Source of the DNA: an uncultured Pseudomonadota bacterium
Lineage (GTDB): Bacteria > Pseudomonadota > Alphaproteobacteria > Rs-D84
DNA length: 64,000 nt
Assembly: GCA_902795435.1 (NCBI GenBank)
Contig: CADBLE010000004.1
Coordinates: forward strand, 71,601 to 135,600
Reading direction: 5' to 3'
Below, one piece after another: positions 3,210 to 39,810 of the stretch. The notes beneath the pieces are model-generated. The model saw only the letters and a list, made by a program, of their open reading frames with translations, made no database searches and was not told the origin of the DNA. Made by a program: the position numbers and the translations under genes. The stretch's first letter is position 1, and every line of letters starts with the position of its first letter.

Positions 3210-4565
3210 TTATTGGTTCAAGAAATCACGTAAATTATCACCAACCAATTGTTTAGAATCGGTTTTGTTCGCATCAACAATTGATATCAAACGCGGACTT
3301 ACAAATACCACCAATTCAGCAAAAGGACTTATCAAAGTTTCAGGTGTTGTAACAAATGCATGGGTTGGAATACCAACGAATACATAGTTATCACCAACAT
3401 TTGACATTATTTTGAAAGATGTCAATTCACCGTTGCTGGTACTCAATACAATTTTAGCATCTATCTTGTTATACCCACCATAATTACCGTATGTACCAGT
3501 TGCACCAACAATCAAATCTGTTTCAAGACGGTCTTCTTTGCCACATTGACCAATATCAAATCTTGATTGCCAACCGTTTGGCAGTGCAAAAGTTCCCTGG
3601 GATATCAAAACCATTTTCGCCTGTTGAGAAATAAACTGTTGTAATGTTTTTGTGTTTATTTCAGGACTTACCACCAACGCGCGTCCTACAACCCCCGGTA
3701 TAGACATGTGAATATTTGTTTCACCGAATGCAGGCAACATATTCATCCAAACAATTGGATTATCTGTTTTTGGATAAACACGATATACATCCATATCCCA
3801 TGCGATTACATATTTTTTAGCACTGACATCTGCGATAATTTTTGCAACTTCCCTTTGTGTTTGATAATTACCTTCAAATACAACTGTTTTATCTTGCCAA
3901 TTCACCAACAGATTTAACACATCTGCACCACGCATAGCGTCTATTATAGCCATTATCATGGTTTCATCTTTTGGCATTTTTATCATAAATTTCCCATGAC
4001 CAGTTATATGTAATTCACCAAACTCTTTATCATAAGAATAATATACACGACCCAATTTAGTAATTAAATCAACCGCGTCAGCCAATGAACCTGTTTTGAT
4101 AGAACCAGTAATTTTTTCAAATGTTTTTTGGTCTTCCAACACAGAAACATCTGTATCTGCCAATAATTTTTCAAGAACATCTTTCACATACATTTTCTTG
4201 AAATCAAAATCAGAAACCTTTAAATCTGGTAATGGGTCACCATTATTTATACGAACAATTTCTATTTTTTCTTCTGGTAATACAGAAACAACACTTTGAT
4301 TATCCCAATCTACATTACATCTTTTTGGTAAATCCAGTGCAAAATGTTGAGCAGTATCTGTGGTCAAAGCCGCCTTTTTCGGGAAAATAGGCACAGATTT
4401 TTCATTTATAACAGAATTTTGGACAACATTTACTGTATCAAATACAGGCATATTTTGTCGTTTATTTGCACACCCATAAACAAATACAGAACACAAACCA
4501 ACGATAAAAAACATCATATTTTTTGCTTGTTTTTGTGCCATCTTCTTTCCTTTTTTATATTTCAT
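3210..4565 (-). CDS. outer-membrane lipoprotein with secretin-like N-domain and C-terminal motif; candidate type IVb-pilus/T2SS secretin (BfpB/TcpC/PilN-like)
   Basis: It has a lipobox (FVYGC). FDFKKMYVKDVLEKLLADTDVSVLED...GSLADAVDLITKLGRVYYSY resembles a secretin N0/N1 domain. The C-terminus ...AELVVFVSPRLISI resembles the secretin hallmark (LLVFVTPRIV). Confidence 0.45.
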   Translation of the reverse strand: MKYKKGKKMAQKQAKNMMFFIVGLCSVFVYGCANKRQNMPVFDTVNVVQNSVINEKSVPIFPKKAALTTDTAQHFALDLPKRCNVDWDNQSVVSVLPEEKIEIVRINNGDPLPDLKVSDFDFKKMYVKDVLEKLLADTDVSVLEDQKTFEKITGSIKTGSLADAVDLITKLGRVYYSYDKEFGELHITGHGKFMIKMPKDETMIMAIIDAMRGADVLNLLVNWQDKTVVFEGNYQTQREVAKIIADVSAKKYVIAWDMDVYRVYPKTDNPIVWMNMLPAFGETNIHMSIPGVVGRALVVSPEINTKTLQQFISQQAKMVLISQGTFALPNGWQSRFDIGQCGKEDRLETDLIVGATGTYGNYGGYNKIDAKIVLSTSNGELTSFKIMSNVGDNYVFVGIPTHAFVTTPETLISPFAELVVFVSPRLISIVDANKTDSKQLVGDNLRDFLNQ

Positions 4566-6110: not shown

Positions 6111-7891
6111 ATTTTTCTAAATCATATATTTTATGTCTAGACATTGGTTCATACGGTGTATGTGGTTTGGTAACACGCGTTATAAACGGAAAAATGGAAC
6201 AATCTTATGCCCATTTTGTAAAAAATCCTGATACTGTTTTTGCATTAAAAAGTGTTATTGACGAACTTGAACAGAAAATCGGTCAGCACCTGACCAGCGC
6301 ATACATAACTGGAAATCTTGGTGAACTTGATTTTCAATTATCAACACAAATAAAACAATTTGGCACACCACACCAAATCACTGAATATGATTTAAAAAAA
6401 CAAATCAACGGAATAAAAATCAAAGATGGTTTTTACAAAATGCATGTTATACCTGTTTCATATAAAACACCTACGAAACAGAATATAACAACAACCCCTG
6501 TATCACAAATTGACACAGAATTGCACAGTGTTTTCAGTGTGATTTCTTATCCAGAAGACAAAACATTAAAAATCAACGAAATTTTACGCAGTGCGCATAT
6601 ACAACCACTTGGATTTTTTGATCCATGTTTTTTACAAGGGCAACTTTATACGCCAAAAACAGGGACAACTTTATTTCTAGATTTGGGTGCAGAATTTACA
6701 ACTGTATCATTTTGGTTTTCCAAGGGACCTTTGTTTATGAAAAAAATCCCATTTGGTCAAAATGATATAACAAAAGAATTGGCTGAAAAAATAAATATAT
6801 CTGAAAAAGATGCAGACGATTTGAAAATATCAATATCAAATACAGTTCCAAATGAAAACGACAGATTTCATCCTGCGGCGGAAACTGGAAAATTTGCTTC
6901 TATTCAAAGGTCTGATATAAATGATGTTTTTCAACCAAAAATACTTGAATTGGTAAATTTGATAAAACAAGAATCTGCCAGATATTTGGATAAATATAAA
7001 CCAAACAAAATTATACTCTCTGGCGGTGGTGCATCTATCCGTAATATAAATTCTTTCCTGGAAAAACATTTCGGTGTACCCGTTGAAAATCATGGTGAAA
7101 TGGCGTCATTGAATGCATTGCTGACTTATATTTGGGACGCATATAAACCAGACCGTGAAAAATTCATAAAAAAACAAACTGCTTTCGATAACAGATTAAA
7201 TAAATTCTTGAAATTATTTAAGAGAAAGAAAATAAAACCAAAACGCAGATTTGTTCCAATCATGCCAAGCACGCTGTGTTTTGATATGAACGATAATTCA
7301 ACATATACAATGTTTGCGTCTGGTGGTATTTCCATGATTCATGTTGATATTATGGACGGTTTATATGTAGATAGAATGGCCGGTGGAATAGACGAACTTG
7401 AAAAAATCAGAATGAAAACAGGTATGCATTTACATACACATTTAATGGTACAAACACCTGCTATTATCGCGGCAGATGCAATAAACGCTGGTGCAGACAC
7501 AATAATAATTCCTGCAGAAACACCTGGAACAGAAAACGCAATCAGAATTATCAAGAAATCTGGCAAACGTTGTGGAATCGCATTAAATCCAGACATTCCT
7601 GCGACATTTATAAAAGACATGTTGCCAATGGTTGATGAAGTTATGGTAATGGCTGTTAAACCGGGCGCTGCGGGTCAAAAATTTGATGACAGTGTTCTTG
7701 AAAAAATAAAATCACTTGATTACACCAGAAAAAAACATGGTCTAAAATATTTAATCAGTGTTGATGGTGGCATAAACCCAGAAACTGCAAAATTATGTTG
7801 GAATGCTGGCGCAAATTTATTGGTATCTGGTTCTTATCTTGAAAACGCACCAGATTTCAGATTGGCAATCATCAGTTTATTGAAGCACTAA
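6107..7891 (+). CDS. FtsA-like actin-family division protein fused in frame to ribulose-phosphate 3-epimerase (Rpe)
   Basis: Residues 1-~375 look like FtsA: LCLDIGSYGVCGLV, ...IILSGGGASIRNINSFLEKHFGVPVE, and an amphipathic basic helix FDNRLNKFLKLFKRKK. Residues ~385-594 carry Rpe hallmarks: IMPSTLCFDM..., MIHVDIMDG, HLMVQTP, VDGGINPETA. No stop codon separates the two parts. Confidence 0.6.
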   Translation: MNFSKSYILCLDIGSYGVCGLVTRVINGKMEQSYAHFVKNPDTVFALKSVIDELEQKIGQHLTSAYITGNLGELDFQLSTQIKQFGTPHQITEYDLKKQINGIKIKDGFYKMHVIPVSYKTPTKQNITTTPVSQIDTELHSVFSVISYPEDKTLKINEILRSAHIQPLGFFDPCFLQGQLYTPKTGTTLFLDLGAEFTTVSFWFSKGPLFMKKIPFGQNDITKELAEKINISEKDADDLKISISNTVPNENDRFHPAAETGKFASIQRSDINDVFQPKILELVNLIKQESARYLDKYKPNKIILSGGGASIRNINSFLEKHFGVPVENHGEMASLNALLTYIWDAYKPDREKFIKKQTAFDNRLNKFLKLFKRKKIKPKRRFVPIMPSTLCFDMNDNSTYTMFASGGISMIHVDIMDGLYVDRMAGGIDELEKIRMKTGMHLHTHLMVQTPAIIAADAINAGADTIIIPAETPGTENAIRIIKKSGKRCGIALNPDIPATFIKDMLPMVDEVMVMAVKPGAAGQKFDDSVLEKIKSLDYTRKKHGLKYLISVDGGINPETAKLCWNAGANLLVSGSYLENAPDFRLAIISLLKH

Positions 7892-8284: not shown

Positions 8285-10279
8285 TTATTCCAATAATAAT
8301 AAATCGTCTTCTAATTTATGAATTGTGTCACGTGTTGCCGCTGCTTCTTCAAATTCAAGGTTTTCAGCATGCTTTAACATCTTTTTGGTCAATGCCTTGA
8401 TTTCCTTACGCAGAGTTTCAGCATCCATAACACCATTTTCATTATACACAAATCTTTTTGCTTTGTCAGTTTTTCCTTGTTCAATTTTTACTTCATCAAA
8501 AACAGATTTTGCAATTGTCTTTGGTATAATACCGTGTTCTTCATTATATTTTTGTTGTTTTTCACGACGACGGGCGGTTTCATCAAGTGCCTCTTTCATA
8601 GAATCAGTTATTTTATCAGCATACAAAATAACACGACCATTTGCGTTTCTGGCAGCACGACCAATTGTCTGAATCAGAGAACGTGTTGAACGTAAAAAAC
8701 CTTCTTTATCAGCGTCCATAATTGCAACCAATTCACATTCTGGGACATCCAAACCTTCCCTTAGCAAATTTATTCCAACCAAAACATCATATTTACCCAA
8801 TCTTAAATCACGCAATAAATCTATTCTTTCCAATGTTTCTATATCACTGTGCAGATAACGTGCGCGAACACCATTTTCAACGAAATAGTCCGTCAATTGT
8901 TCAGCCATTTTCTTGGTCAAAGTTGTAACAATCACACGACCCTTTGTCTGTTTAACCTGGTCTAATAAATCATCAACCTGATTTTGTGTTGGACGAACAT
9001 CACAAATTGGATCTAATAACCCGGTTGGACGAATAACCTGTTCAGACACAATTCCACCCGATTGTTCCAATTCCCATTGTGCAGGTGTTGCGGACACAAA
9101 TATAGTTTGCGGACGCAGAGAATCCCATTCATCAAAAGTAAGCGGTCTGTTATCAACACATGATGGTAATCTGAATCCATATTGTGCCAATGTTTCTTTG
9201 CGCGCACGGTCACCACGCGACATAGCACCAATTTGTGGCACTGTAACATGGCTTTCGTCTATAAACAAAACCGCATCATCTGGTAAATATTCAAACAAAG
9301 TTGGTGGTGGTTGTCCCGGTAATCTGCCCGTCATATATCTTGAATAATTTTCTATTCCACGACAAGTTCCGGTTGATTCCATCATTTCAATATCAAAATT
9401 TACACGTTCGCGTAATCTTTGTTCTTCTATGTATTTCATATTGTCATGAAAATATTTCAACCGTTCATCTAAATCTATTTTAATCTGGTCTAATGCCTGT
9501 AATACAGATGGCATAGGTGTTGCATAGTGCGTATTTGGATAAATAGAAATTCTGTTTAATTTTTGTAATTTATTACCAGTCAAAACATCTATTTCCCAGA
9601 TTTCATCAACTTCGTCCCCGAAAAATGATATTTTCCATGCTCTGTCCTGGGAATGAGATGGAAAAACATCCAATGTATCGCCACGAACACGGAATTCACC
9701 ACGCGAAAATCCCATATCATTTCTTTTGTATTGAATATCCACCAAATAACGTGCGACATCTTTTTCAGATATTCTGTCCCCGGTATTCAAAACCAATTTC
9801 ATTTGTGCATATTGTTCTGGGGAACCAATACCATAAATAGATGATACAGACGAAACAACAATAACATCTCTTTCTTCTAACATTGCCCTGGTCGCACTGT
9901 GGCGCATACGGTCTAATTGTTCGTTTATAGCCGCATCTTTATCTATGTAAGTATCCGTTGTTGGAACATAGGCTTCTGGTTGATAGTAATCATAGAAAGA
10001 AACAAAATATTCAACATGATTTCTTGGAAAGAAAGATTTCATTTCTGTATATAATTGTGCCGCCAAAATTTTATTTGGTGCCATAATTATTGTCGGACGT
10101 GATAATTCTTGGATAACATTAGCCATTGTAAATGTTTTTCCAGAACCCGTTACCCCTAATAAAACCTGAGATTTTTTACCTTCATTGACCCCAGCGACCA
10201 ATTCCGCAATCGCAGTTGGTTGGTCTCCCATTGGGGCATAATCAGATTCTAACGAAAAAACACTTTCTTTTGTTTTCAT
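8285..10279 (-). CDS. uvrB: excinuclease ABC subunit B (UvrB)
   Basis: 664 aa with [15 protein letters not shown] (Walker A), helicase motifs and a UvrB C-terminal coiled-coil ([10 protein letters not shown]). Confidence 0.9.
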
Positions 10280-28999: not shown

Positions 29000-31399
<2,400 letters not shown>

Positions 31400-31503
31400 T
31401 TAAAATTCCTTTCTTTTTGCTATGTAAAACATAGCAATTTATGATATAATTATCAAGTGAAAAGGTATAAAAAAGCACTATTTTTAACCAAAAGGTTTAA
31501 TCT

Positions 31504-32073
31504 ATGAAATTCAAGTTACTTTACTATGGCGACATTTTAACAAACCCGAAAAAACGCGCCCAACATATCGCGGATATTCGTATGCAATTTCACCCTCAAT
31601 TAAAGAAATTGCTAAATTTCCAACCATGGAACAATTTGTCTAAATTTATGATGCCAGACGCCATAAAAAGCCCGATTATAACCCGTCATATCGGCGGCAT
31701 AGATTTCAATCCAATCATTACATCAAATCTGAAAATGATTGCAGAATTAGACATATTGTTGATGCACCCTGAAATTGTCGGTGTTCCACGTTCAGACATA
31801 GATAACCGCGTTAAAACAATATTGGACGGCCTGCGTTGCCCACAAAACGAACACGAAATCGGTCAAAATACACCACATGATGTTGGACCAATCTATACTC
31901 TGTTAGACGACGACCATTTGGTTACAAAATTGACCGTCAACACCAGCCACCTATTATCAACAGATATGTTCCCAGAAAACGCAAAAACGTCCCCAGATTC
32001 AGTTTTCATGCTGATAGACGTGAATGTAAGGGTTACAGAAGGAACACTTGAAAACCTGCCATTTATGGCTTAA
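31504..32073 (+). CDS. hypothetical protein
   Basis: 189-aa ORF that I do not recognise. A hairpin terminator follows. Confidence 0.4.
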   Translation: MKFKLLYYGDILTNPKKRAQHIADIRMQFHPQLKKLLNFQPWNNLSKFMMPDAIKSPIITRHIGGIDFNPIITSNLKMIAELDILLMHPEIVGVPRSDIDNRVKTILDGLRCPQNEHEIGQNTPHDVGPIYTLLDDDHLVTKLTVNTSHLLSTDMFPENAKTSPDSVFMLIDVNVRVTEGTLENLPFMA

Positions 32074-32085
32074 ATAAAAGCAAAT

Positions 32086-32118
32086 AAAAAACACCCACGT
32101 TTGTGGGTGTTTTTCTTC
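32086..32118. terminator. bidirectional intrinsic terminator (acacccacgtttgtgggtgt)
   Basis: aaaaaacacccacgtttgtgggtgtttttct lies between convergent genes. Confidence 0.6.
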
Positions 32119-32191
32119 AGGAAAAAGAAAGAGAACCATGAATTCCCTTTCATTGACATACCAAAACGATATGCCAATTGGTTTTTGCCGA

Positions 32192-33397
32192 TTATGGCAA
32201 ATTGGTTTGTTCCGGTGCACTGAAACGCCAACCACGGAATGTTTGACCTTTCTTGGTTGCCGCTTTGACTGGCGTACGTACATCTTCGCCATACGTTGCG
32301 GTACCCGCATTGTTTGCGGATATATCCGCCGCACTTGCATCAGACCAATTAATGTTAATAACATTTGCCTCACACATGGCTGGACCCGATTCAATAGCCC
32401 CGAACATCGCAGCACGGAACGCGAGGTTGGTCGAACCCGTGTACTGCACGTTGCTCGCACAGTAGCTAGCGCAGCTGCCACTGCAATTCCACGCGTCGTG
32501 GAAGTCGGTGTAGAACACCCAAGGGGAGAGCACCGCTTGCATGTTGCCACTTCCATCTTTATATCCGGTTACATTACAATAACAATATTGTGCCCCCGTT
32601 TGACCCGTTTCATCCGTTAAATTTGATGTTATTGTTGGGTTTGTCCATGTATAACTATTATTATCACCTGCCTGTGTAGAACAACGACCCTGACCAACCA
32701 ACACACCCTTTGACGAACCATAATCAACCGCCCATGTGTTATTATCGCTTATGCCATAATATGATTGTCCATTTGATGCGCTTTCAATGAATAAACCACT
32801 GTTATTTACAAATGCACTGTTTTCACCCCTACCGGTACCAATTGTAGATGTTAAATTCAATCCCTGTTTCAAATGCCAACCGTTCACGCATGCCGTTGGT
32901 TCACATGTATCGGTACCGGCACCGTAATAATCATTACCAGATACCGCCGTTGCGTGCGCGATATTTGTGAATGATGTTCCCATATTATTTATATCACATG
33001 CACGATAACATTGTGTATCTGATGATGCACCGTCTGCGGAATTTGCATAGCCCGTTGGACATGTTTGTATACCCTGTGGCGTGGTTTGATTATATTGGAC
33101 ATTACCACTGATTCCCGGGCAAAACGAGCCCGCCGGACATGTTATTACGGTTTCAGAATCTGCAGGCAAATATTGTCCCGCGTTTACGATATAATCTATG
33201 ATATCGTATTCCGCGACCGCGTTTACGGTGCCTTCGTATACACTATCCATATTGTCTGCAGTTGCCGCATTGGTATATGTATAATCTTCCTGCATATAAC
33301 CGTCATTTGGGAATGAGTCGGTATGACTTGGTTCTGCAATTGCCGGTGCAACAAAGCCCATTGCAAGCGCGCTGGTTAAAAAGATTTTTTGTGACAT
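32192..33397 (-). CDS. Sec-exported cysteine-rich, Gly/Thr/Ser/Asn/Tyr-rich protein encoded by a GC-rich, compositionally foreign gene
   Basis: Signal peptide MSQKIFLTSALAMGFVAPAIA|EP. The mature part has about 22 Cys in paired arrangement. Its GC content is visibly much higher than its neighbours, enough to spawn spurious antisense ORFs. It has its own upstream hairpin terminator at 33421-33440. Confidence 0.55.
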   Translation of the reverse strand: MSQKIFLTSALAMGFVAPAIAEPSHTDSFPNDGYMQEDYTYTNAATADNMDSVYEGTVNAVAEYDIIDYIVNAGQYLPADSETVITCPAGSFCPGISGNVQYNQTTPQGIQTCPTGYANSADGASSDTQCYRACDINNMGTSFTNIAHATAVSGNDYYGAGTDTCEPTACVNGWHLKQGLNLTSTIGTGRGENSAFVNNSGLFIESASNGQSYYGISDNNTWAVDYGSSKGVLVGQGRCSTQAGDNNSYTWTNPTITSNLTDETGQTGAQYCYCNVTGYKDGSGNMQAVLSPWVFYTDFHDAWNCSGSCASYCASNVQYTGSTNLAFRAAMFGAIESGPAMCEANVININWSDASAADISANNAGTATYGEDVRTPVKAATKKGQTFRGWRFSAPEQTNLP

Positions 33398-33655
33398 GGT
33401 TACTCCCTTCTTTTCTTTTTTTTAACAAGAAAACCACCATAAACATTTGGTGGTTGGAGGTTAGTAACAATTAAAACAGAAATTGTGCCGTTTATTTATG
33501 TATATCACGACCCTCCAACCATAATTGAAGTTGGAGGCATTTTTCGTCTGCTTTACGACGCTGTTTTAACCGGGTTACTACACCCCACCGATAAAAATTC
33601 TTATCGACATTTTTATCATAGCAATTTTAGAAAAATTTTTACAAGTAAATTTTAT

Positions 33656-34726
33656 TTACATCAAAACGGCGGTGATTTGTTCCTGCATTTGGAAAGTACC
33701 CAGAACTATCCACCCAATGATAATAGACACCAATATAATACCAATACTATTCAGAACACTGGATATAGATTCCATACGGCGAACTGATTCTTCCATATAA
33801 TCTTTCGCGATATCGTCCAGATTTTGTGCAAAATCGTTCATATCTGAATAAATCATTAAATCGCCAACGATTTCACTGTTTGGAAAATCTTTGCCCGTCA
33901 ATGCCAGCGCAGAACCCAAATTTTCACCGTTTGCAATATGATGCAGGGTTTCTTCTAATATATTTGATAAATATCTGTTTGATGAATCCATCAACAAACG
34001 CAACGCATCTGGTACCGATACCCCCGCAGACACCATTGCCGCCAATGACATCAGCCAACCAACAGATGTTTGTAATTTATAAATATTCCATGGTGGTAAT
34101 TTATCAAATAAAGTTCTGAGCCGTCCCGTCCATATTGGCAAAGATAACCATACAACAGATATCAAACCGACCAAGCCCGCTGCGAATACATACCAATATT
34201 TATTTGCGAAATCTGATACCCATATCAGGGACGCCGCCGTGCCACGCCATATAATATCACTGCCCGCGGCCTGGGCCAATGGTGGAACCAAATATATTCC
34301 AACCATAATAATTATACCTATTGTCAATAAAAACAAAAATAACGGATATGCCAACGCAGACCACATTGCGCGTTTAATACGCCTTATTCCGCCGACAACA
34401 CGCGATACATTTTCAAGTGAAACCAATAAACTGGACACATTACCAGACATCAACAGCAATGTTTCTTCGGTTGGAACCCAACCACGTGTGGCCTCACTGA
34501 AAGTCATACCTTTTTCCAGGTTTTGTTGAATTTCACGCATTGCGATTGCAAATGGTTCATCTGGTTTTCGGCCGTCAAATGATTCTATCATTTCAATACG
34601 GTGCAACGCGTCCATCAATGTAAAATTATTACGCAACAGAGATGCGATTTTTCTTGAAATCGCCATACGTTTATCAGTATTTGTTCTAAAAACCAGTTTT
34701 GCATACAGCAAATCTAATTTAGTCAT
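33656..34726 (-). CDS. type IV filament inner-membrane platform protein (GspF/PilC/TcpE/PilR family)
   Basis: 356 aa with two T2SSF-like repeats (…LMDALHRIEMIES…GMTFSEATRGWVP… and …VPDALRLLMDSSN…GENLGSALALTG…) and three TM segments. Confidence 0.7.
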   Translation of the reverse strand: MTKLDLLYAKLVFRTNTDKRMAISRKIASLLRNNFTLMDALHRIEMIESFDGRKPDEPFAIAMREIQQNLEKGMTFSEATRGWVPTEETLLLMSGNVSSLLVSLENVSRVVGGIRRIKRAMWSALAYPLFLFLLTIGIIIMVGIYLVPPLAQAAGSDIIWRGTAASLIWVSDFANKYWYVFAAGLVGLISVVWLSLPIWTGRLRTLFDKLPPWNIYKLQTSVGWLMSLAAMVSAGVSVPDALRLLMDSSNRYLSNILEETLHHIANGENLGSALALTGKDFPNSEIVGDLMIYSDMNDFAQNLDDIAKDYMEESVRRMESISSVLNSIGIILVSIIIGWIVLGTFQMQEQITAVLM

Positions 34727-34729
34727 CTT

Positions 34730-36370
34730 TTAATACACCCATGGTCTGTCTAATAAACCAACCCTGTCTTCCAATTCATCAACACCGATAATACCACGCA
34801 ACATCAATTCAGTTGCAGATTCTTTCAATGTTCGGCCATTCATTTTTTCAAGCCAATATTTAACCGCACTTTCTGTTTCCCCCGCCAGCGCAAGTGATAA
34901 AAATTCACTGTTTGTGATAATGATTTCACCCGCCTTGACACGACCGATTGTTCCGGTGCCATTACAATATTCACAACCAACCCCACGAACATAGGTTTGT
35001 GCCAAACCTAAATCACCCAATGTTTCGCGAACACGGTTATATGACGGATGATTTCTTTTATCTAATAATCTTTCACGACAATGCGGGCATAATTTCTTGA
35101 ACAAACGCATAGAAACCAAACCGCGCATCATTGTTTCATCTTTCAATTTGAATGCTTCAACCCCCATATCCAACAAACGGGTCAATGCACCCATCGCAGA
35201 ATTAGCATGCAAAGTTGTCCAAACATTATGACCAGACAACGCGCCCTTGACCGTCAATTGTGCCGCAGATAAAGTTCTGATTTCACCGACCATCAATGTA
35301 TCAGGGTCGCTTCGCAAAGCAGCGGCCAGGGCTTCTGTAAATTTTTCTTCACGTTGTTCTTCGTTTGCAGTATTTACAACCGGCATTTGATGTGCGCCGA
35401 AAATCTTTTGTTCTGCAGGATCTTCCACAGTAATAAGATTTATTTCATATCTTTTTTCTTTCAACATCAACGCCATATTGCGAACCAATGTCGTAGATTT
35501 ACCAGATGATGTAGGCCCCGCAACAACAACCAATCCCGTTGGTGCAGAACGTAATCTCATCAATAATTTTTGTTCGTATTCGTTAAATTCTTGTTCTGTT
35601 TTTATACCTTCACTTGGGTTATCATACAGCAGACGCATAACCACATATTGTGAACCAAACGCAATTGGATTAAATTGCATACGAATACCCAATACACCAT
35701 TTGGCAAATATAAATCTTTTGTTCCACGTAATGGTGTGCGACCATCTTTCTGGGCGGTTTGATATTCATTTTGTGCATAACTTGAATTAGAAATATCAGC
35801 CGACGCAAATGCCGCACGAACGAAAGATTCACCCCATTGTGAATTATATTCCAGAACCGGTTGCATACTGCCGTCTATACGAAAATAAATTGTTGTTTGG
35901 TCTGCAACTTCTATGTGAATATCAGAAACCTTTTGTGATGCAGCACGTGCGATAATATCAACAAAATCTTTCTGCATCTGGTTATCATAATCCGGTCGCG
36001 CATGTATTCCACCAACCCTTTCATCATTGTATTTGTAAATATTTGATATCAACCCTAAATCAGAATAAAAAGGTTGCTTCATCAATCTGTTTTTTTGACG
36101 CAATAAATCTATAAACGCAATAACACGACCATCATATCTGTGTGTTCTGGAAATAATAATTTCGCCACTTGAAAAATAAGCAATCAAACTCTGTGTGTCT
36201 TTCGGCAAAGCCAATTCACCCGCAGAAGATGTCAATAATCTGTTTTTATTAGAAAACAAATAATCTATGATATCTTTACCATTTGCATTTTCAAGACCCG
36301 TCGGAATTGACGGTTTTGATGAAACATCATTAAAAACTTTATCGTCTTTTTTTGGCATATTATTTTCCAA
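34730..36370 (-). CDS. type IV filament assembly ATPase (GspE/PilB/TcpT/PilQ-R64 family) with a C4 zinc motif
   Basis: Walker A AGPTSSGKSTTL, Asp box and Walker B TLMVGEIR, His box TTLHANSA, the N2 domain DIHIEV...IYFRIDG, and a tetracysteine CPHC...CEYC. Confidence 0.8.
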   Translation of the reverse strand: MENNMPKKDDKVFNDVSSKPSIPTGLENANGKDIIDYLFSNKNRLLTSSAGELALPKDTQSLIAYFSSGEIIISRTHRYDGRVIAFIDLLRQKNRLMKQPFYSDLGLISNIYKYNDERVGGIHARPDYDNQMQKDFVDIIARAASQKVSDIHIEVADQTTIYFRIDGSMQPVLEYNSQWGESFVRAAFASADISNSSYAQNEYQTAQKDGRTPLRGTKDLYLPNGVLGIRMQFNPIAFGSQYVVMRLLYDNPSEGIKTEQEFNEYEQKLLMRLRSAPTGLVVVAGPTSSGKSTTLVRNMALMLKEKRYEINLITVEDPAEQKIFGAHQMPVVNTANEEQREEKFTEALAAALRSDPDTLMVGEIRTLSAAQLTVKGALSGHNVWTTLHANSAMGALTRLLDMGVEAFKLKDETMMRGLVSMRLFKKLCPHCRERLLDKRNHPSYNRVRETLGDLGLAQTYVRGVGCEYCNGTGTIGRVKAGEIIITNSEFLSLALAGETESAVKYWLEKMNGRTLKESATELMLRGIIGVDELEDRVGLLDRPWVY

Positions 36371-37037
36371 TGTTTATATTTTCTTCTTCACCATCTTTTT
36401 CAAACACAATTCCGTCATTCAAAGAAATACTTTTTACAACATAGCCATCAATTTGTTTACCAACACTGACGCGTTTATTTTGACCACTTGAAATTTCTTC
36501 AATTGTTGCCTGTAATTGGTTACCAACACCAATAACATTTACCAATTTATAGTTCTTTGATAAACCACCTTCTGCAACTTTCTTTTGTTGTTTTTCTTGG
36601 ACAACAACTTCTTCTTCATCTGGTTGTTCCAATTGGCGTTTTAATTTTTCTGTTTGTGCTTCTAATTGTGCCTTGGTTGCTTCTAATTCTTGCTGCTGTT
36701 GTTCTGCACGACCAGACAAAGTATCCAATTCCATTTGAATTTTCAATTTTTCAGCATTTAATCTTTCCAATTCTAAATCAAGTTGCGCCCTTTCTTTTTC
36801 AAGTTGCATAACAACCTTTTCTTGTTCTAATGCTGTTATTCTTTCAAACAAAGAACCACTGACTTCGTAATTATTTAATGCATCGGCAGACATTTGGTCG
36901 GCTGTTTCTTCTGTAACAACAACTTCTTCTTCAATAAAATCTTCTGAAAAAGATGGGACAGAAAAACCGAATATAACCAAAATAGATAATAATATTTTCT
37001 TCATCTTATTTTTCCTTTTTTTATTTTGTATAAACAA
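36360..37037 (-). CDS. periplasmic coiled-coil protein with a C-terminal beta domain; PilP/GspC-like secretin-interacting candidate
   Basis: Signal peptide, a long Q/E-rich coiled coil, and a C-terminus KLVNVIGVGNQLQATIEE...VSVGKQIDGYVVKSISLNDGIVFEKDG that resembles PilP/GspC HR-like domains. Confidence 0.35.
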   Translation of the reverse strand: MFIQNKKRKNKMKKILLSILVIFGFSVPSFSEDFIEEEVVVTEETADQMSADALNNYEVSGSLFERITALEQEKVVMQLEKERAQLDLELERLNAEKLKIQMELDTLSGRAEQQQQELEATKAQLEAQTEKLKRQLEQPDEEEVVVQEKQQKKVAEGGLSKNYKLVNVIGVGNQLQATIEEISSGQNKRVSVGKQIDGYVVKSISLNDGIVFEKDGEEENINIGK

Positions 37038-38301
37038 TTACTTCGTAATTCCATGTTCTTGTGTTTGCGTTCCAATTTACAGATGTCATATAAACACCAC
37101 CAAATTCATTAAACACATTCATAAATTCAGATGGTATCATTTTTGATGATGCAGAAACTTCTATTACATTTATTTTTTCTGTTTCTTCGCCATTTGATAT
37201 CGTGTCTGAAACACCGTTTATGTGTAATTTAGTGTTTATCTTTTGGAAATTAGTTGTAATATCACGCATGGCTGTAACCTGGTCGCGTTCGTCCAAAGAA
37301 GAAATTGTTTTTATTTCAGGTAACATAACACGAACCAACACTTCATTTTCAGATAATTGTTGAACAACTGCACCAGGAAACAATTCAGAACCAATTTCAT
37401 AAAAACCATTTAATGTCCCAAAATCGCGTTTGAATGTAGCGGTTACATATTTTTCATCACATTTTGTATATGTTTGGTTCCACCCAGATATTGGTTGCAT
37501 AACAAAAGCAATCGCTTTATAACACAAATTTGCGCGTTCCATAACATCTGGCAAATGTTCGTATGGACGATTTAATGGTTCAATTTCTTTTTTAACAATA
37601 TTGAATTGTTTGTCCAATTCTTTATTTTTCAATTCAATTTGACGTTTATATTCAGCCGCCAATTCAGGGTCTATATTTGCATGTTTGCGTGGCATAATAC
37701 TTTTACCCATTGGTGAATACAAAACAGATGCAACCGCCGCTACAAAAAGAACAATAAAGAATATAGACGGTAACAAAGATTTTACAATACTGATATTACG
37801 TAATCTGGCAATATTGTTGTTTTGGATAATATCTGGTAAAAATTTTTCCTGGGAACGTGGCATTCCCCAAGATGCTGGTGCAAACAAAGCACCCCAATCA
37901 GGAATGTTTGATAATTCAGTATAAATTTCACGTGCGCTTTTTTCAGATTCTATCAAAATATCACGAATAATAATTCCATTACGCACCGCAACCAGATAAA
38001 AACCATTATCAGTTTGGAAAACACCCAAAAACGAAATCAAATCTGCAAAATTATCAACAATTTCCGCAGCCGCACTTGGCATAGAAAAATATGCACCATT
38101 TTTGCCATTGGTTAAACCAACCATAGATTTATATTCTGTAAACAGCGTATATTTTGTATTTTTAGCCAGTTGTCTTGCATAATTAAATGCAGTATTACCA
38201 ACACTGACAGGTTGCCAAAACAGGCCTGTCGCATATTTTTTATGATGAACAGTTATGGTTTGTTTAATCATTCTCTCTTCTGTGTTGATATTATAACACA
38301 A
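37021..38301 (-). CDS. bitopic inner-membrane assembly protein, GspL/BfpC/PilO(R64)-like candidate
   Basis: 426 aa with a cytoplasmic domain of about 190 aa, a central TM (LLPSIFFIVLFVAAVASVLY) and a periplasmic domain of about 210 aa. This is the same topology and size as GspL-type ATPase anchors. It is the first gene of the apparent operon. Confidence 0.3.
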   Translation of the reverse strand: MCYNINTEERMIKQTITVHHKKYATGLFWQPVSVGNTAFNYARQLAKNTKYTLFTEYKSMVGLTNGKNGAYFSMPSAAAEIVDNFADLISFLGVFQTDNGFYLVAVRNGIIIRDILIESEKSAREIYTELSNIPDWGALFAPASWGMPRSQEKFLPDIIQNNNIARLRNISIVKSLLPSIFFIVLFVAAVASVLYSPMGKSIMPRKHANIDPELAAEYKRQIELKNKELDKQFNIVKKEIEPLNRPYEHLPDVMERANLCYKAIAFVMQPISGWNQTYTKCDEKYVTATFKRDFGTLNGFYEIGSELFPGAVVQQLSENEVLVRVMLPEIKTISSLDERDQVTAMRDITTNFQKINTKLHINGVSDTISNGEETEKINVIEVSASSKMIPSEFMNVFNEFGGVYMTSVNWNANTRTWNYEVIVYTK

Positions 38302-38361
38302 AAGATAAAATAAAATAAAGGTAAAATTGTATTAAAAAAGTCGTATTTCTACGACTTTTAT

Positions 38362-38673
38362 TTATTTTTTACATTTATAAACTTTTGCTTTGACCTTAAA
38401 CGTGTTTTTCGGTCCAAATATAGCACCTTCGTTTTCCAGTGTTTCTTCGCCTGTGATATAGTAAGTATCCCCCAGACCGTCTTGTTCAATTATTCTTTTT
38501 TCAAGAAATTCATACGCATCTTTTACATTGTAAGAAGTCATTGTTGTATCAACATTATACAAATATTCACAATTTTTTGGTTCACTGGTCAATCTGACAA
38601 TACCATTATTTTGTTCAGGTACCGTTGTTGCACACGCGCCCAAAATTAAAGACAGTAATACTAATTTTTTCAT
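38362..38673 (-). CDS. small lipoprotein (hypothetical)
   Basis: MKKLVLLSLILGACAT lipobox. It has its own terminator at 38335-38362. Confidence 0.4.
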   Translation of the reverse strand: MKKLVLLSLILGACATTVPEQNNGIVRLTSEPKNCEYLYNVDTTMTSYNVKDAYEFLEKRIIEQDGLGDTYYITGEETLENEGAIFGPKNTFKVKAKVYKCKK

Positions 38674-38870
38674 TTTTTCCTCCCTTTTTCTTTCAATTTA
38701 GATTCTAAAACTACACATGAAGCACCCAGCCCCAAAAACATTATTTCAATTAAAAACACATAAAAAGTTCCTAACAAATTATTTTCTACAAAATAATCTG
38801 TTATTTCAAAAGCAACAACCAATAAAAAATACCAACCAAACCAGATTAAATTTTTTTGCCATCTTTTCAT
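38670..38870 (-). CDS. small two-TM membrane protein (hypothetical)
   Basis: 66-aa ORF overlapping the start of the downstream lipoprotein gene by 4 nt. Confidence 0.3.
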   Translation of the reverse strand: MKRWQKNLIWFGWYFLLVVAFEITDYFVENNLLGTFYVFLIEIMFLGLGASCVVLESKLKEKGRKK

Positions 38871-38880
38871 TTTTTAACCT

Positions 38881-39810
38881 TTATATGATTTCATAATTAT
38901 CTGGGTCGCTGAATAATTTACGCAAAACCAAATTATTCAACGCATGCGAACCCTTGACTGATTCAAGATTTGCATAAATAAAACCACCACTTGTGAACAT
39001 ATCACCAACAGCGTCTATGATTTTATGACGAACAAATTCGTTTTTATAATACAGTTTATTTAATGTTCCGTCACCCGCATCATTCAATGCAATCACATTA
39101 TGTTCATTTGCACCACGACCCATACCATGTGCCTTTAACCATTCCCATTCGCTGTATTTACCGAAAGTTCTTGATTTAGCAATATCTTTGATAAATTTAT
39201 ATTTTGTTTTTTTAGTTCCGTCCAAAAAACAAGAATAAGATTGTGTTCCTATGATTTTATCTTTATAAACCAATGTTGCGTCTATGTTTAAACCCTTGCT
39301 GTTTGGAGACAATTTAACAAAACCGTTGCCTTTTCTCCAAATCGTGTGGTTAAAGATAATTGTTTTCAATTTCTTGAAACCATGCATTTGTTTTACCAAT
39401 TCATTTCTTTTTGCGACAATTGTCTTTTTAACAATAATTTTTTTCATCTTGGTTTTTGTGCCAACATATTTTTCCAGCATTTTGATAAATTCAGAAGCAC
39501 TTCCGTCCAAGATTGGTGTTTCTTGACCGTCTATTTCAATAATCGCGCTGTCTATACCCAATAAAAACAAGGCAGCCATTAAATGTTCAATTGTTTGTAC
39601 ATGCGCACCATTTGTTTTACCAATTGTGGTATTACGCATCAAAGTTTCCCCAACATTATCAAAACTCGCAGGAATCAATTCAGAATTTGGTATATCAATT
39701 CTGTGAAAGAAAATACCATATTTTTTAGATGGTTTAACAACCATATTCACAACATTTCCAGAATGAATACCGACCCCAGAAATTTTAACTTTTTTTGTTA
39801 GAGATGTCAT
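38881..39810 (-). CDS. lpxC: UDP-3-O-acyl-N-acetylglucosamine deacetylase
   Basis: MTSLTKKVKISGVGIHSGN..., ...TIEHLMAAL..., and an HKxxD-like pattern. Confidence 0.85.
   Translation of the reverse strand: MTSLTKKVKISGVGIHSGNVVNMVVKPSKKYGIFFHRIDIPNSELIPASFDNVGETLMRNTTIGKTNGAHVQTIEHLMAALFLLGIDSAIIEIDGQETPILDGSASEFIKMLEKYVGTKTKMKKIIVKKTIVAKRNELVKQMHGFKKLKTIIFNHTIWRKGNGFVKLSPNSKGLNIDATLVYKDKIIGTQSYSCFLDGTKKTKYKFIKDIAKSRTFGKYSEWEWLKAHGMGRGANEHNVIALNDAGDGTLNKLYYKNEFVRHKIIDAVGDMFTSGGFIYANLESVKGSHALNNLVLRKLFSDPDNYEII

Follow-up and report, generated by a model that had tools for sequence, protein, structure and literature searches.

The window analysed here is a stretch of 64,000 nucleotides (nt) from the genome of an uncultured alphaproteobacterium of the lineage Rs-D84 (contig CADBLE010000004.1), and the gene under study lies within it at 32192–33397 on the minus strand, encoding a protein of 401 amino acids (aa). 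We consider it probable (about 0.78) that this gene, carried by a gut symbiont whose genome is reduced, belongs to a mosaic family encoding exported proteins, and that the family is diversified by a diversity-generating retroelement (DGR) and controlled by an RNA leader. The list of open reading frames (ORFs), together with homologue and profile searches, assigns the product to a secreted, cysteine-rich, variable protein family of Enterousia. The family, its base composition, the signature of a DGR variable region (VR), complete DGR cassettes in relatives and the structure of the leader with its alternative pairing were all observed directly. We have good confidence, judging from sequence, that the stretch of codons 281–340 is DGR-derived. 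For this particular copy current activity is unproven, and its continued rewriting is something we infer only.

A preliminary description of this DNA had proposed that the GC content of the gene exceeds that of everything around it and had suggested a recent acquisition by horizontal transfer. The ORF is intact, and its GC content of 45.6%, against 34.0% for the window, is the highest among 53 ORFs (z = 3.4). The contrast with the surroundings holds for overall GC but is weaker at the third codon position (GC3), where the neighbouring 189-aa ORF at 31504–32073 (plus strand) and the pilR-like gene at 33656–34726 reach 0.41 and 0.37. Together with a pilQ-like gene (0.30), these neighbours with raised GC3 span 31504–32073 (plus) and 33656–36370 (minus), the window mean being 0.25. 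Among the 53 ORFs the gene stands out at the second codon position (GC2 = 0.515, z = 4.1) and ranks second at the third (GC3 = 0.386, z = 3.0), while the first (GC1) is ordinary. When the protein is recoded with the codon usage of the window a GC content of 40.7% is predicted, and amino-acid composition therefore makes up 56% of the excess. The residual is concentrated in codons 281–340 (32378–32557, minus strand), where GC3 is 0.72 against 0.27 expected and 15/18 NNY codons end in C, compared with a background of 23%. This stretch contains the sequence that the preliminary description had quoted as an example, which is also spanned by the peak of local GC (54% at 32301–32600), and the family-average GC3 profile peaks at the same place. 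The GC excess of the gene is thus due to its amino-acid composition (56%) and to a local stretch of NNC codons typical of a DGR VR.

Other explanations of this composition were considered and rejected. Codons 281–340 show no unusual RNA structure (folding z = −0.95). GC-biased gene conversion acting on the section of the gene that varies most is contradicted by the equally variable centre (aa 175–270), which has low GC3, and is further countered by a pattern that is specific to codon position and to adenine. The spurious antisense ORFs that the preliminary description ascribed to high GC are present at 32138–32620, 32253–32465, 33065–33316 and 33262–33474, and a further out-of-frame ORF overlaps the gene on the same strand (31999–32556). 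We rejected all of these as genes, as they cross terminators or neighbouring genes and the amino acids of the stretch are not conserved, and treat them as by-products of GC content.

The stretch shows the variation of a DGR target. In a DNA alignment of paralogues the first two bases of its codons vary over all four nucleotides and the third stays C. Invariant TGC, TCG and GCG codons lie between these NNC codons, and after them comes an adenine-free block, CTCGCGTTCCGTGCTGCG (32408–32425, minus strand), which is common to the template repeat (TR) TR59 and is a candidate for the initiation of mutagenic homing (IMH) element. Aligned to the template repeats of relatives, the VR-like segment of the window gene comprises codons 292–335 (PWVF...AFRAAMFG; 32392–32524, minus strand). 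In 15 family genes, the window gene among them, columns where the template has adenine show an entropy of 1.61 bits, compared with 0.57 at all others (p = 9e-16). Moreover, adenine occupies 0/49 of the near-invariant columns of the stretch compared with 50/223 in the rest of the gene. By codon position the entropies are 0.90/0.89/0.67 in the stretch versus 0.78/0.75/1.32 in the rest of the gene, a reversal of order. Variation limited to template-adenine positions, NNC or NNT codons and adenine-free invariant positions, all of which are expected of a DGR VR, were found here.

Searching with the CTCGCGTTCCGTGCTGCG block revealed a second copy 740 nt downstream of the family gene in a relative (locus L059). 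This second copy is a TR full of AAC codons (CCTTGGGTGTTCAACAACGACAAC...), and downstream of it lie an ORF of 108 aa and then a reverse transcriptase (RT) of 342 aa (RVT_1, E = 2.7e-14) whose sequence holds PIGNLTSQ and YCDD. The motif [ILV]GxxxSQ is a hallmark of DGR reverse transcriptases. Complete cassettes of target, TR and RT were identified in three relatives (L029, L030 and L059), in each of which an RT (RVT_1) adjoins a family gene. All three VR/TR pairs carry adenine-specific mismatches. In L059, where the VR is truncated by the contig end, 7/7 mismatches fall at template adenines; in L030 (156 nt, 90% identity) the figure is 14/16; and in L029 (154 nt) 18/31 adenine sites are mismatched versus 4/123 others (Fisher p = 8e-12). 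Against three such heterologous template repeats the window VR is 68–74% identical, and it differs at 45–52% of template adenines versus 18–28% of other bases (Fisher p = 0.003–0.014, for heterologous TRs only). Template repeats of different relatives themselves diverge by 14–18%, so that the non-adenine mismatch of the window VR is no greater than the divergence of TRs between species.

Several further features of these cassettes were recorded. The 108-aa ORF lies between TR and RT in 3/3 cassettes (L059 1233–1559, L030 3017–3343 and L029 8766–9092); it matched neither Avd, HRDC, nor any other Pfam or NCBIfam family, no known accessory gene was thus recognised, and it may be a new DGR accessory protein. 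In L029 and L030 an ORF of ~196 aa without an NCBIfam match stands between target and TR. Where homology ends on the 3′ side, 3/3 cognate pairs have the palindrome GGCGCC in the VR and GGCTCC in the TR (L029 ~7144–7149 and 8510–8515; L030 1600–1605; L059 ~70–80 and 810–815). Immediately ahead of TTCCGC or TTCGC, two pairs show a T in the TR that is an A in the VR. Both kinds of difference are candidates for the bases that distinguish IMH from IMH*. The sequence following the TR (GGACAAAAGTTTTGCTAACCTG.GGGACAAAGTGTACA) is conserved among the cassettes. The 4.5-kb contig of L030, which holds the full cassette, carries tandem repeats of 37–39 nt at both ends (1–88 and 4445–4562; TGACAAAGGGGGCTGGATTGCCGCG...GCAATGACAAA).

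The gene is preceded by a conserved, structured 5′ leader RNA of ~200 nt (33414–33613, minus strand; covariance model R1, 213.9 bits). Compared with shuffled sequence, the 258-nt spacer in front of the gene has a much stronger predicted fold (z = −6.2), and RNAalifold predicts 52 pairs, which form a P1 hairpin, then an outer helix around three further hairpins and lastly an intrinsic terminator. R1 has a single strong match in the window and finds ~30 leader copies overall, almost all of which end 20–30 nt before the start of a family gene, including paralogues in other contexts and genomes. Among 29 copies, 97.2% of cells pair as predicted versus 37–48% with slid partners, and 42/52 pairs show changes on both sides, figures that are biased towards the structure, the alignment having been fitted to the model. 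A search of Rfam 15 with 31300–34000 (E up to 5) returned only terminator look-alikes at chance level. The terminator hairpin (AACCACC...GGTGGTT plus a U run; 33432–33455, minus strand, from sequence and RNAalifold) has a 5′ arm that overlaps CCUCCAACC, a copy of the 5′ arm of hairpin P4. The P4 3′ arm, GGUUGGAGG, consequently has two possible partners, the P4 5′ arm or CCUCCAACC, and in the 29 sequences all three segments covary through four sequence variants. Three-way covariation with mutually exclusive partners is the signature of a terminator/antiterminator switch, and both the covariation-supported structure and the exclusive pairings of an attenuator are therefore present. We regard the leader as a well-supported new structured RNA, which would sense a presumed effector.

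The preliminary description had placed the gene behind its own terminator. A hairpin does lie upstream (33455–33432), but it does not end the pilus operon; as it travels with the gene family as the 3′ element of the leader, it belongs to the regulatory leader of the gene. Transcription of the leader likely starts at a promoter-like site (TTGTAA, 18 nt, TG-TATGAT; 33615–33644, minus strand, from a consensus scan) just past the stop codon that ends the pilR-like gene. Shuffled sequence yields such matches equally often; the position of the site is conserved in the sister genome described below. Translation signals comprise a Shine-Dalgarno sequence read from the DNA, AAGGGAG, 5 nt before the ATG (33403–33409, minus strand) and conserved in paralogues. 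Other paralogues have a second class of leader, in which a hairpin terminator comes after a (CA)n tract of 20 to at least 54 nt that lies 130–180 nt ahead of the start codon (L011 3218–3237, L017 5857–5878, L012 5837–5866, L015, L028, L044 5844–5877, L051 5843–5874 and L061 5816–5869+). The length of the tract differs among paralogues within one metagenome-assembled genome (MAG), CAMORN01, and it may be a phase-variation tract. One copy of the structured leader (L026 518–713, minus strand) precedes a different secreted, cysteine-rich repeat protein (LLCDNGYSPDNTTCTTYG..., ORF L026 1–500, minus strand), and the leader is thus not strictly limited to the 400-aa family.

The protein itself has the features of an exported, disulfide-held molecule. 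The Sec signal peptide given in the preliminary description is borne out by the N-terminus, MSQKIFLTSALAMGFVAPAIA|EPS, which has the form of a Sec/signal peptidase I substrate, is conserved in the family and was read from the sequence with no predictor. It covers aa 1–21 (33335–33397, minus strand), with an AIA|E cleavage motif and without a lipobox, and P17, A18 and A20 are nearly invariant across the family alignment. About 22 cysteines had been claimed; the actual count is 14, all of them invariant or nearly so among 57 homologues (alignment A1). Its composition favours Ala, Thr, Gly, Ser, Asn and Tyr, with little Lys, Leu or Ile. Seven invariant cysteines fall in a conserved N-terminal region (aa 22–175; 32873–33334, minus strand; alignment A1) marked by the motifs CPAGSFCPG, QCYRxC and TCEPTxCxNGWH. 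An AlphaFold2 (AF2) model built with the 57 homologues has a mean predicted local distance difference test (pLDDT) score of 80.7, with values of 81–92 over aa 21–130 and 57–80 over aa 131–170. It predicts an N-terminal part rich in beta structure and cysteines, a middle domain of the alpha/beta type and a small C-terminal domain; the last two helices of the middle domain (301–317 and 321–332) bear the VR and the cysteines of a CxxxCxxxC motif.

The claim that no domain is recognisable stood for Pfam above threshold and for NCBIfam, which gave no match for the protein, but a weak C-terminal domain was detected. This domain of ~55 aa (32213–32371, minus strand; motif KGQTFRGWRF; weak Pfam match) resembles the Listeria-Bacteroides or InlB B-repeat (Flg_new, PF09479), which matches aa 364–391 with 16 bits (E = 0.013), below the gathering threshold of 27 bits. 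Similarly weak matches occur in 22/57 family members, while longer relatives pass the threshold (P0243 with 28.1 bits; P0018 and P0049 with precomputed matches). It is probably a divergent InlB B-repeat homologue, its membership being not demonstrated. A sequence-profile search of the PDB with the protein returned no match, nor did a structural search with the AF2 model find a fold match in the PDB or among the viral protein models of BFVD. The earlier suggestion of a secreted, disulfide-rich protein, possibly an adhesin, fits the predicted nature of a variable ligand-binding protein. Most likely its role is variable ligand or cell binding, at the surface or after secretion.

At least 379 homologous proteins were found for the gene product, and a profile search recovered 1477 cluster representatives at E values up to 0.001. 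In genomes representing GTDB species we identified 71 loci, nearly all from Candidatus Enterousia or from unclassified Alphaproteobacteria or proteobacteria, and all from animal guts (ruminant, horse and others); a single short contig was binned as Oscillospiraceae. Genomes carry several copies: 12 loci in the MAG CAMORN01, 15 in the MAG RGIG7797, many of these at contig ends, and at least 3 copies in the source genome of the window, only one of which lies within the 64 kb (tblastn). The family also includes giants (P0241, P0243, P0324 and P0353, of 1601, 2701, 6218 and 5094 aa) in which as many as 35 stretches match and Pfam recognises only the C-terminal Flg_new and, in one, DUF7631. Enterousia (order Rs-D84) has genomes of 0.75–1.0 Mb, lacks respiration and standard transporters, is uncultured and is thought to be an obligate symbiont or parasite dependent on a partner cell (PMC12306168).

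A syntenic copy of the locus (L006) exists in CAMORN01, a sister genome. Identity between the two is 92.6% for the pilus genes, 95.3% for the leader and 95.5% for the convergent downstream gene, compared with 67.4% for the coding sequence of the target (37–48% in some segments) and 61% for the 3′ intergenic region. Moreover, windows of 30 aa are 90–100% identical to many different family members, the best overall match being 73%. Such a mosaic pattern indicates, at the level of sequence, exchange of segments among paralogues in addition to mutagenesis by the retroelement.

A number of observations weigh against reading the window gene as a DGR target. Neither a TR nor an RT is present in the 64-kb window (for RT, by tblastn with 120 Enterousia RTs). 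The cognate TR of the source genome was not recovered by k-mer, RT-homologue or TR-ORF searches: an exact 14-mer search returned only VRs and the L059 TR, an adenine-masked full TR matched only itself, a metagenome scan with a 15-mer gave chance hits among the matches listed, and none of the RT homologues and TR-encoded ORFs found could be tied to the source genome. Differences between the window VR and the available TRs also extend to the 18–28% of non-adenine positions given above. At its 3′ end the VR reads ATGTTCGGGGCTATTGAA, unlike the GGTTCGCTTGGCGCC of three cis-targets; the window has the adenine-free CTCGCGTTCCGTGCTGCG and lacks the GGCGCC motif of the cognate-pair VRs, and a conserved GC-rich inverted repeat downstream of the VR was not found. 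A C-type-lectin fold around the VR was detected neither by sequence profile nor by Foldseek, and the VR is internal rather than C-terminal; both are atypical, as a lectin fold and a C-terminal VR are reported to be near-universal in DGR targets (PMC8144416). Around one third of paralogues have an AT-rich, non-VR segment without adenine bias (e.g. L002, L010, L017, L019 and L020), such that not every copy is a target; we take these to be decayed copies or non-targets. Binding function and localisation are likewise presumed, the surface location being putative. The window copy could be a fossil or a remote VR. In the former case the gene would be an ordinary variable surface-protein paralogue diversified only by recombination or gene conversion, its VR a relic of an ancestral DGR target. 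The mosaic similarity to many family members and the divergence from L006 far outside the VR speak for this, as do the missing TR and RT, the unusual 3′ end, the non-adenine mismatches and the clear loss of VR character in some paralogues. However, the stretch retains third-position C in 15/18 NNY codons as well as adenine-free invariant blocks, and in a genome whose GC3 is close to 0.25 such a signal would be expected to fade fast unless renewed. Moreover, the non-adenine mismatch does not surpass that between TRs of different species, and DGR targets lying over 100 kb away from the RT are on record, with up to seven remote targets in Treponema (PMC5758913). We judge a fossil to be improbable.

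The recent import of a foreign, GC-richer gene, as originally proposed, is largely refuted and now seems very unlikely. In its favour are the highest GC of 53 ORFs, the raised GC3 (z = 3.0) and the fact that the locus is an island of divergence relative to the sister genome (67% identity versus 93–96% in the flanks). However, the homologues are confined to the same genus with many copies per genome, GC1 is ordinary and the excess resides in GC2 and the 60-codon stretch. Raised GC is a property of the whole family (41–53% in 31/31 genes examined): in L008 the gene (45.5%) is clearly above its flanks (30–39%), and in L022 it is also above them with a weaker contrast (flanks up to 42%). The locus is syntenic in L006, there was no structural match among viral protein models, no tRNA abuts the gene (the nearest are >5 kb away) and no mobility gene occurs among the annotated flanking ORFs, no dedicated integrase search having been run. 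Absence from the locus in relatives, foreign kin and borders formed by mobility genes or tRNAs, as expected of a horizontally acquired island, were thus not found, and a lineage-wide, multi-copy family with raised GC throughout and a syntenic copy in the sister genome takes the place of the acquisition. Alternatively, the adjacent type IVb-pilus/type II secretion system (T2SS)-like operon might have the protein as its substrate or as an accessory adhesin. The gene does lie directly downstream of PAP_PilO, T2SSE and T2SSF genes on the same strand, as the preliminary description correctly stated, and L006 shows the same layout. Paralogues, including some that carry this leader, instead adjoin unrelated housekeeping genes (trxB/serS in L002, tyrS/secG in L003) and no pilus genes, and the link between gene and operon is therefore positional only and incidental. 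In addition, a terminator-bearing leader and a promoter-like site separate operon and gene, and the signal peptide is of the classical Sec type, not a prepilin leader. We give this last possibility hardly any weight.

Taken together, these data are best accommodated by membership of a DGR target family in Candidatus Enterousia, a presumed partner-dependent inhabitant of gut and rumen with genomes <1 Mb. The protein would be exported by Sec and held together by disulfides among its 14 conserved cysteines. In relatives, an AAC-rich TR would be reverse-transcribed with errors at adenines, and the error-bearing copy would replace a segment of ~135 nt inside the gene, the VR. Some 15–20 residues would thereby be randomised, while neither the 3′ block nor the TGC (Cys), TCG and GCG codons would change. 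The seemingly foreign GC would stem from the NNC codons of the VR plus an abundance of Ala, Gly, Thr and Ser. Outside the VR, paralogues would exchange segments and so become mosaic. Lastly, the leader would gate transcription: when its element closes P4 the terminator could form, whereas pairing with the 5′ arm of the terminator would permit read-through.

The system can be compared with several that are already known. As in the DGR proteins Mtd of Bordetella phage BPP-1, Treponema denticola TvpA and Legionella LdtA, relatives show adenine-specific VR/TR mismatches and an adjacent RT, AAC-rich template codons give rise to NNC codons, the target is exported and, as in Treponema, several non-adjacent targets occur per genome (PMC5758913). 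In contrast to these proteins, the VR lies inside the protein, with a domain of ~65 aa after it; in place of a C-type-lectin fold, undetected by profile and Foldseek, the AF2 model predicts two cysteine-stapled helices. Further differences are the 108-aa accessory ORF that matches neither Avd nor HRDC, a target family unusually large for a genome <1 Mb and a cognate TR and RT that were not seen for the window gene. The C-terminal ~55 aa share a G-x-T-F-x-G-W motif with the InlB B-repeat (PF09479, Flg_new), and the longer relatives that pass the Pfam threshold are named InlB B-repeat-containing proteins by NCBI. Unlike that repeat, the window protein scores 16 bits, short of the 27-bit cut-off, has a single C-terminal copy and no array, and comes from a Gram-negative host.

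Multigene families of variable surface proteins are also found in other bacteria with reduced genomes, namely Msp2/P44 of Anaplasma and Vsp/Vlp of Mycoplasma. Like these, the present family packs numerous paralogues into a small genome; their ends are conserved and their centres vary, similarity is mosaic, assemblies break at the copies and some 5′ regions contain simple-sequence repeats. There is no sequence relationship, however, part of the variation here is retroelement-driven, and the copies are complete genes with their own signal peptide and leader as opposed to silent cassettes. The leader resembles riboswitches, T-box elements and protein-dependent attenuators in being a structured 5′ untranslated region that ends in an intrinsic terminator, with one element having two mutually exclusive partners and three segments covarying. 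It differs from them in lacking an Rfam 15 match and in preceding genes for variable surface proteins instead of metabolic or transport genes.

More tentatively, and with considerable doubt, we hypothesise that a symbiont of <1 Mb spends >1% of its genes on this family, that a single retroelement rewrites in trans an internal VR on a non-lectin, disulfide-stapled helical scaffold and that each copy is gated by a switch RNA, a riboswitch candidate, or by a (CA)n tract. If true, surface variation would be layered three times, through hypermutation, paralogue mosaicism and per-copy switching of expression. Should the internal VR, the absence of a detectable lectin fold and the non-Avd accessory gene hold, this large cellular target family would widen the rule for DGR targets (PMC8144416), and a compact new diversifiable scaffold would be on offer. 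The leader adds a previously undescribed regulatory RNA with a clear switching mechanism. A hypervariable, regulated, exported family is moreover the most concrete lead so far to how Enterousia/Rs-D84 might attach to, or evade, its partner. In scans of AT-rich genomes, a local rise in GC3 made up of NNC codons can point to a DGR VR whose retroelement lies outside the window.

The annotated neighbours of the gene are gyrB, pilus genes and lpx genes. The pilus-like cluster at 36360–38301 and 38301–38881 (minus strand) comprises PAP_PilO, T2SSE and T2SSF together with an ORF of 225 aa assigned to no family; a pilin, prepilin peptidase or secretin was not identified in its annotated part. The convergent 189-aa ORF at 31504–32073 has no Pfam or NCBIfam match, and the gene shares with it a downstream intrinsic terminator with a 13-bp stem, found by hairpin scan at 32086–32115 (minus strand).

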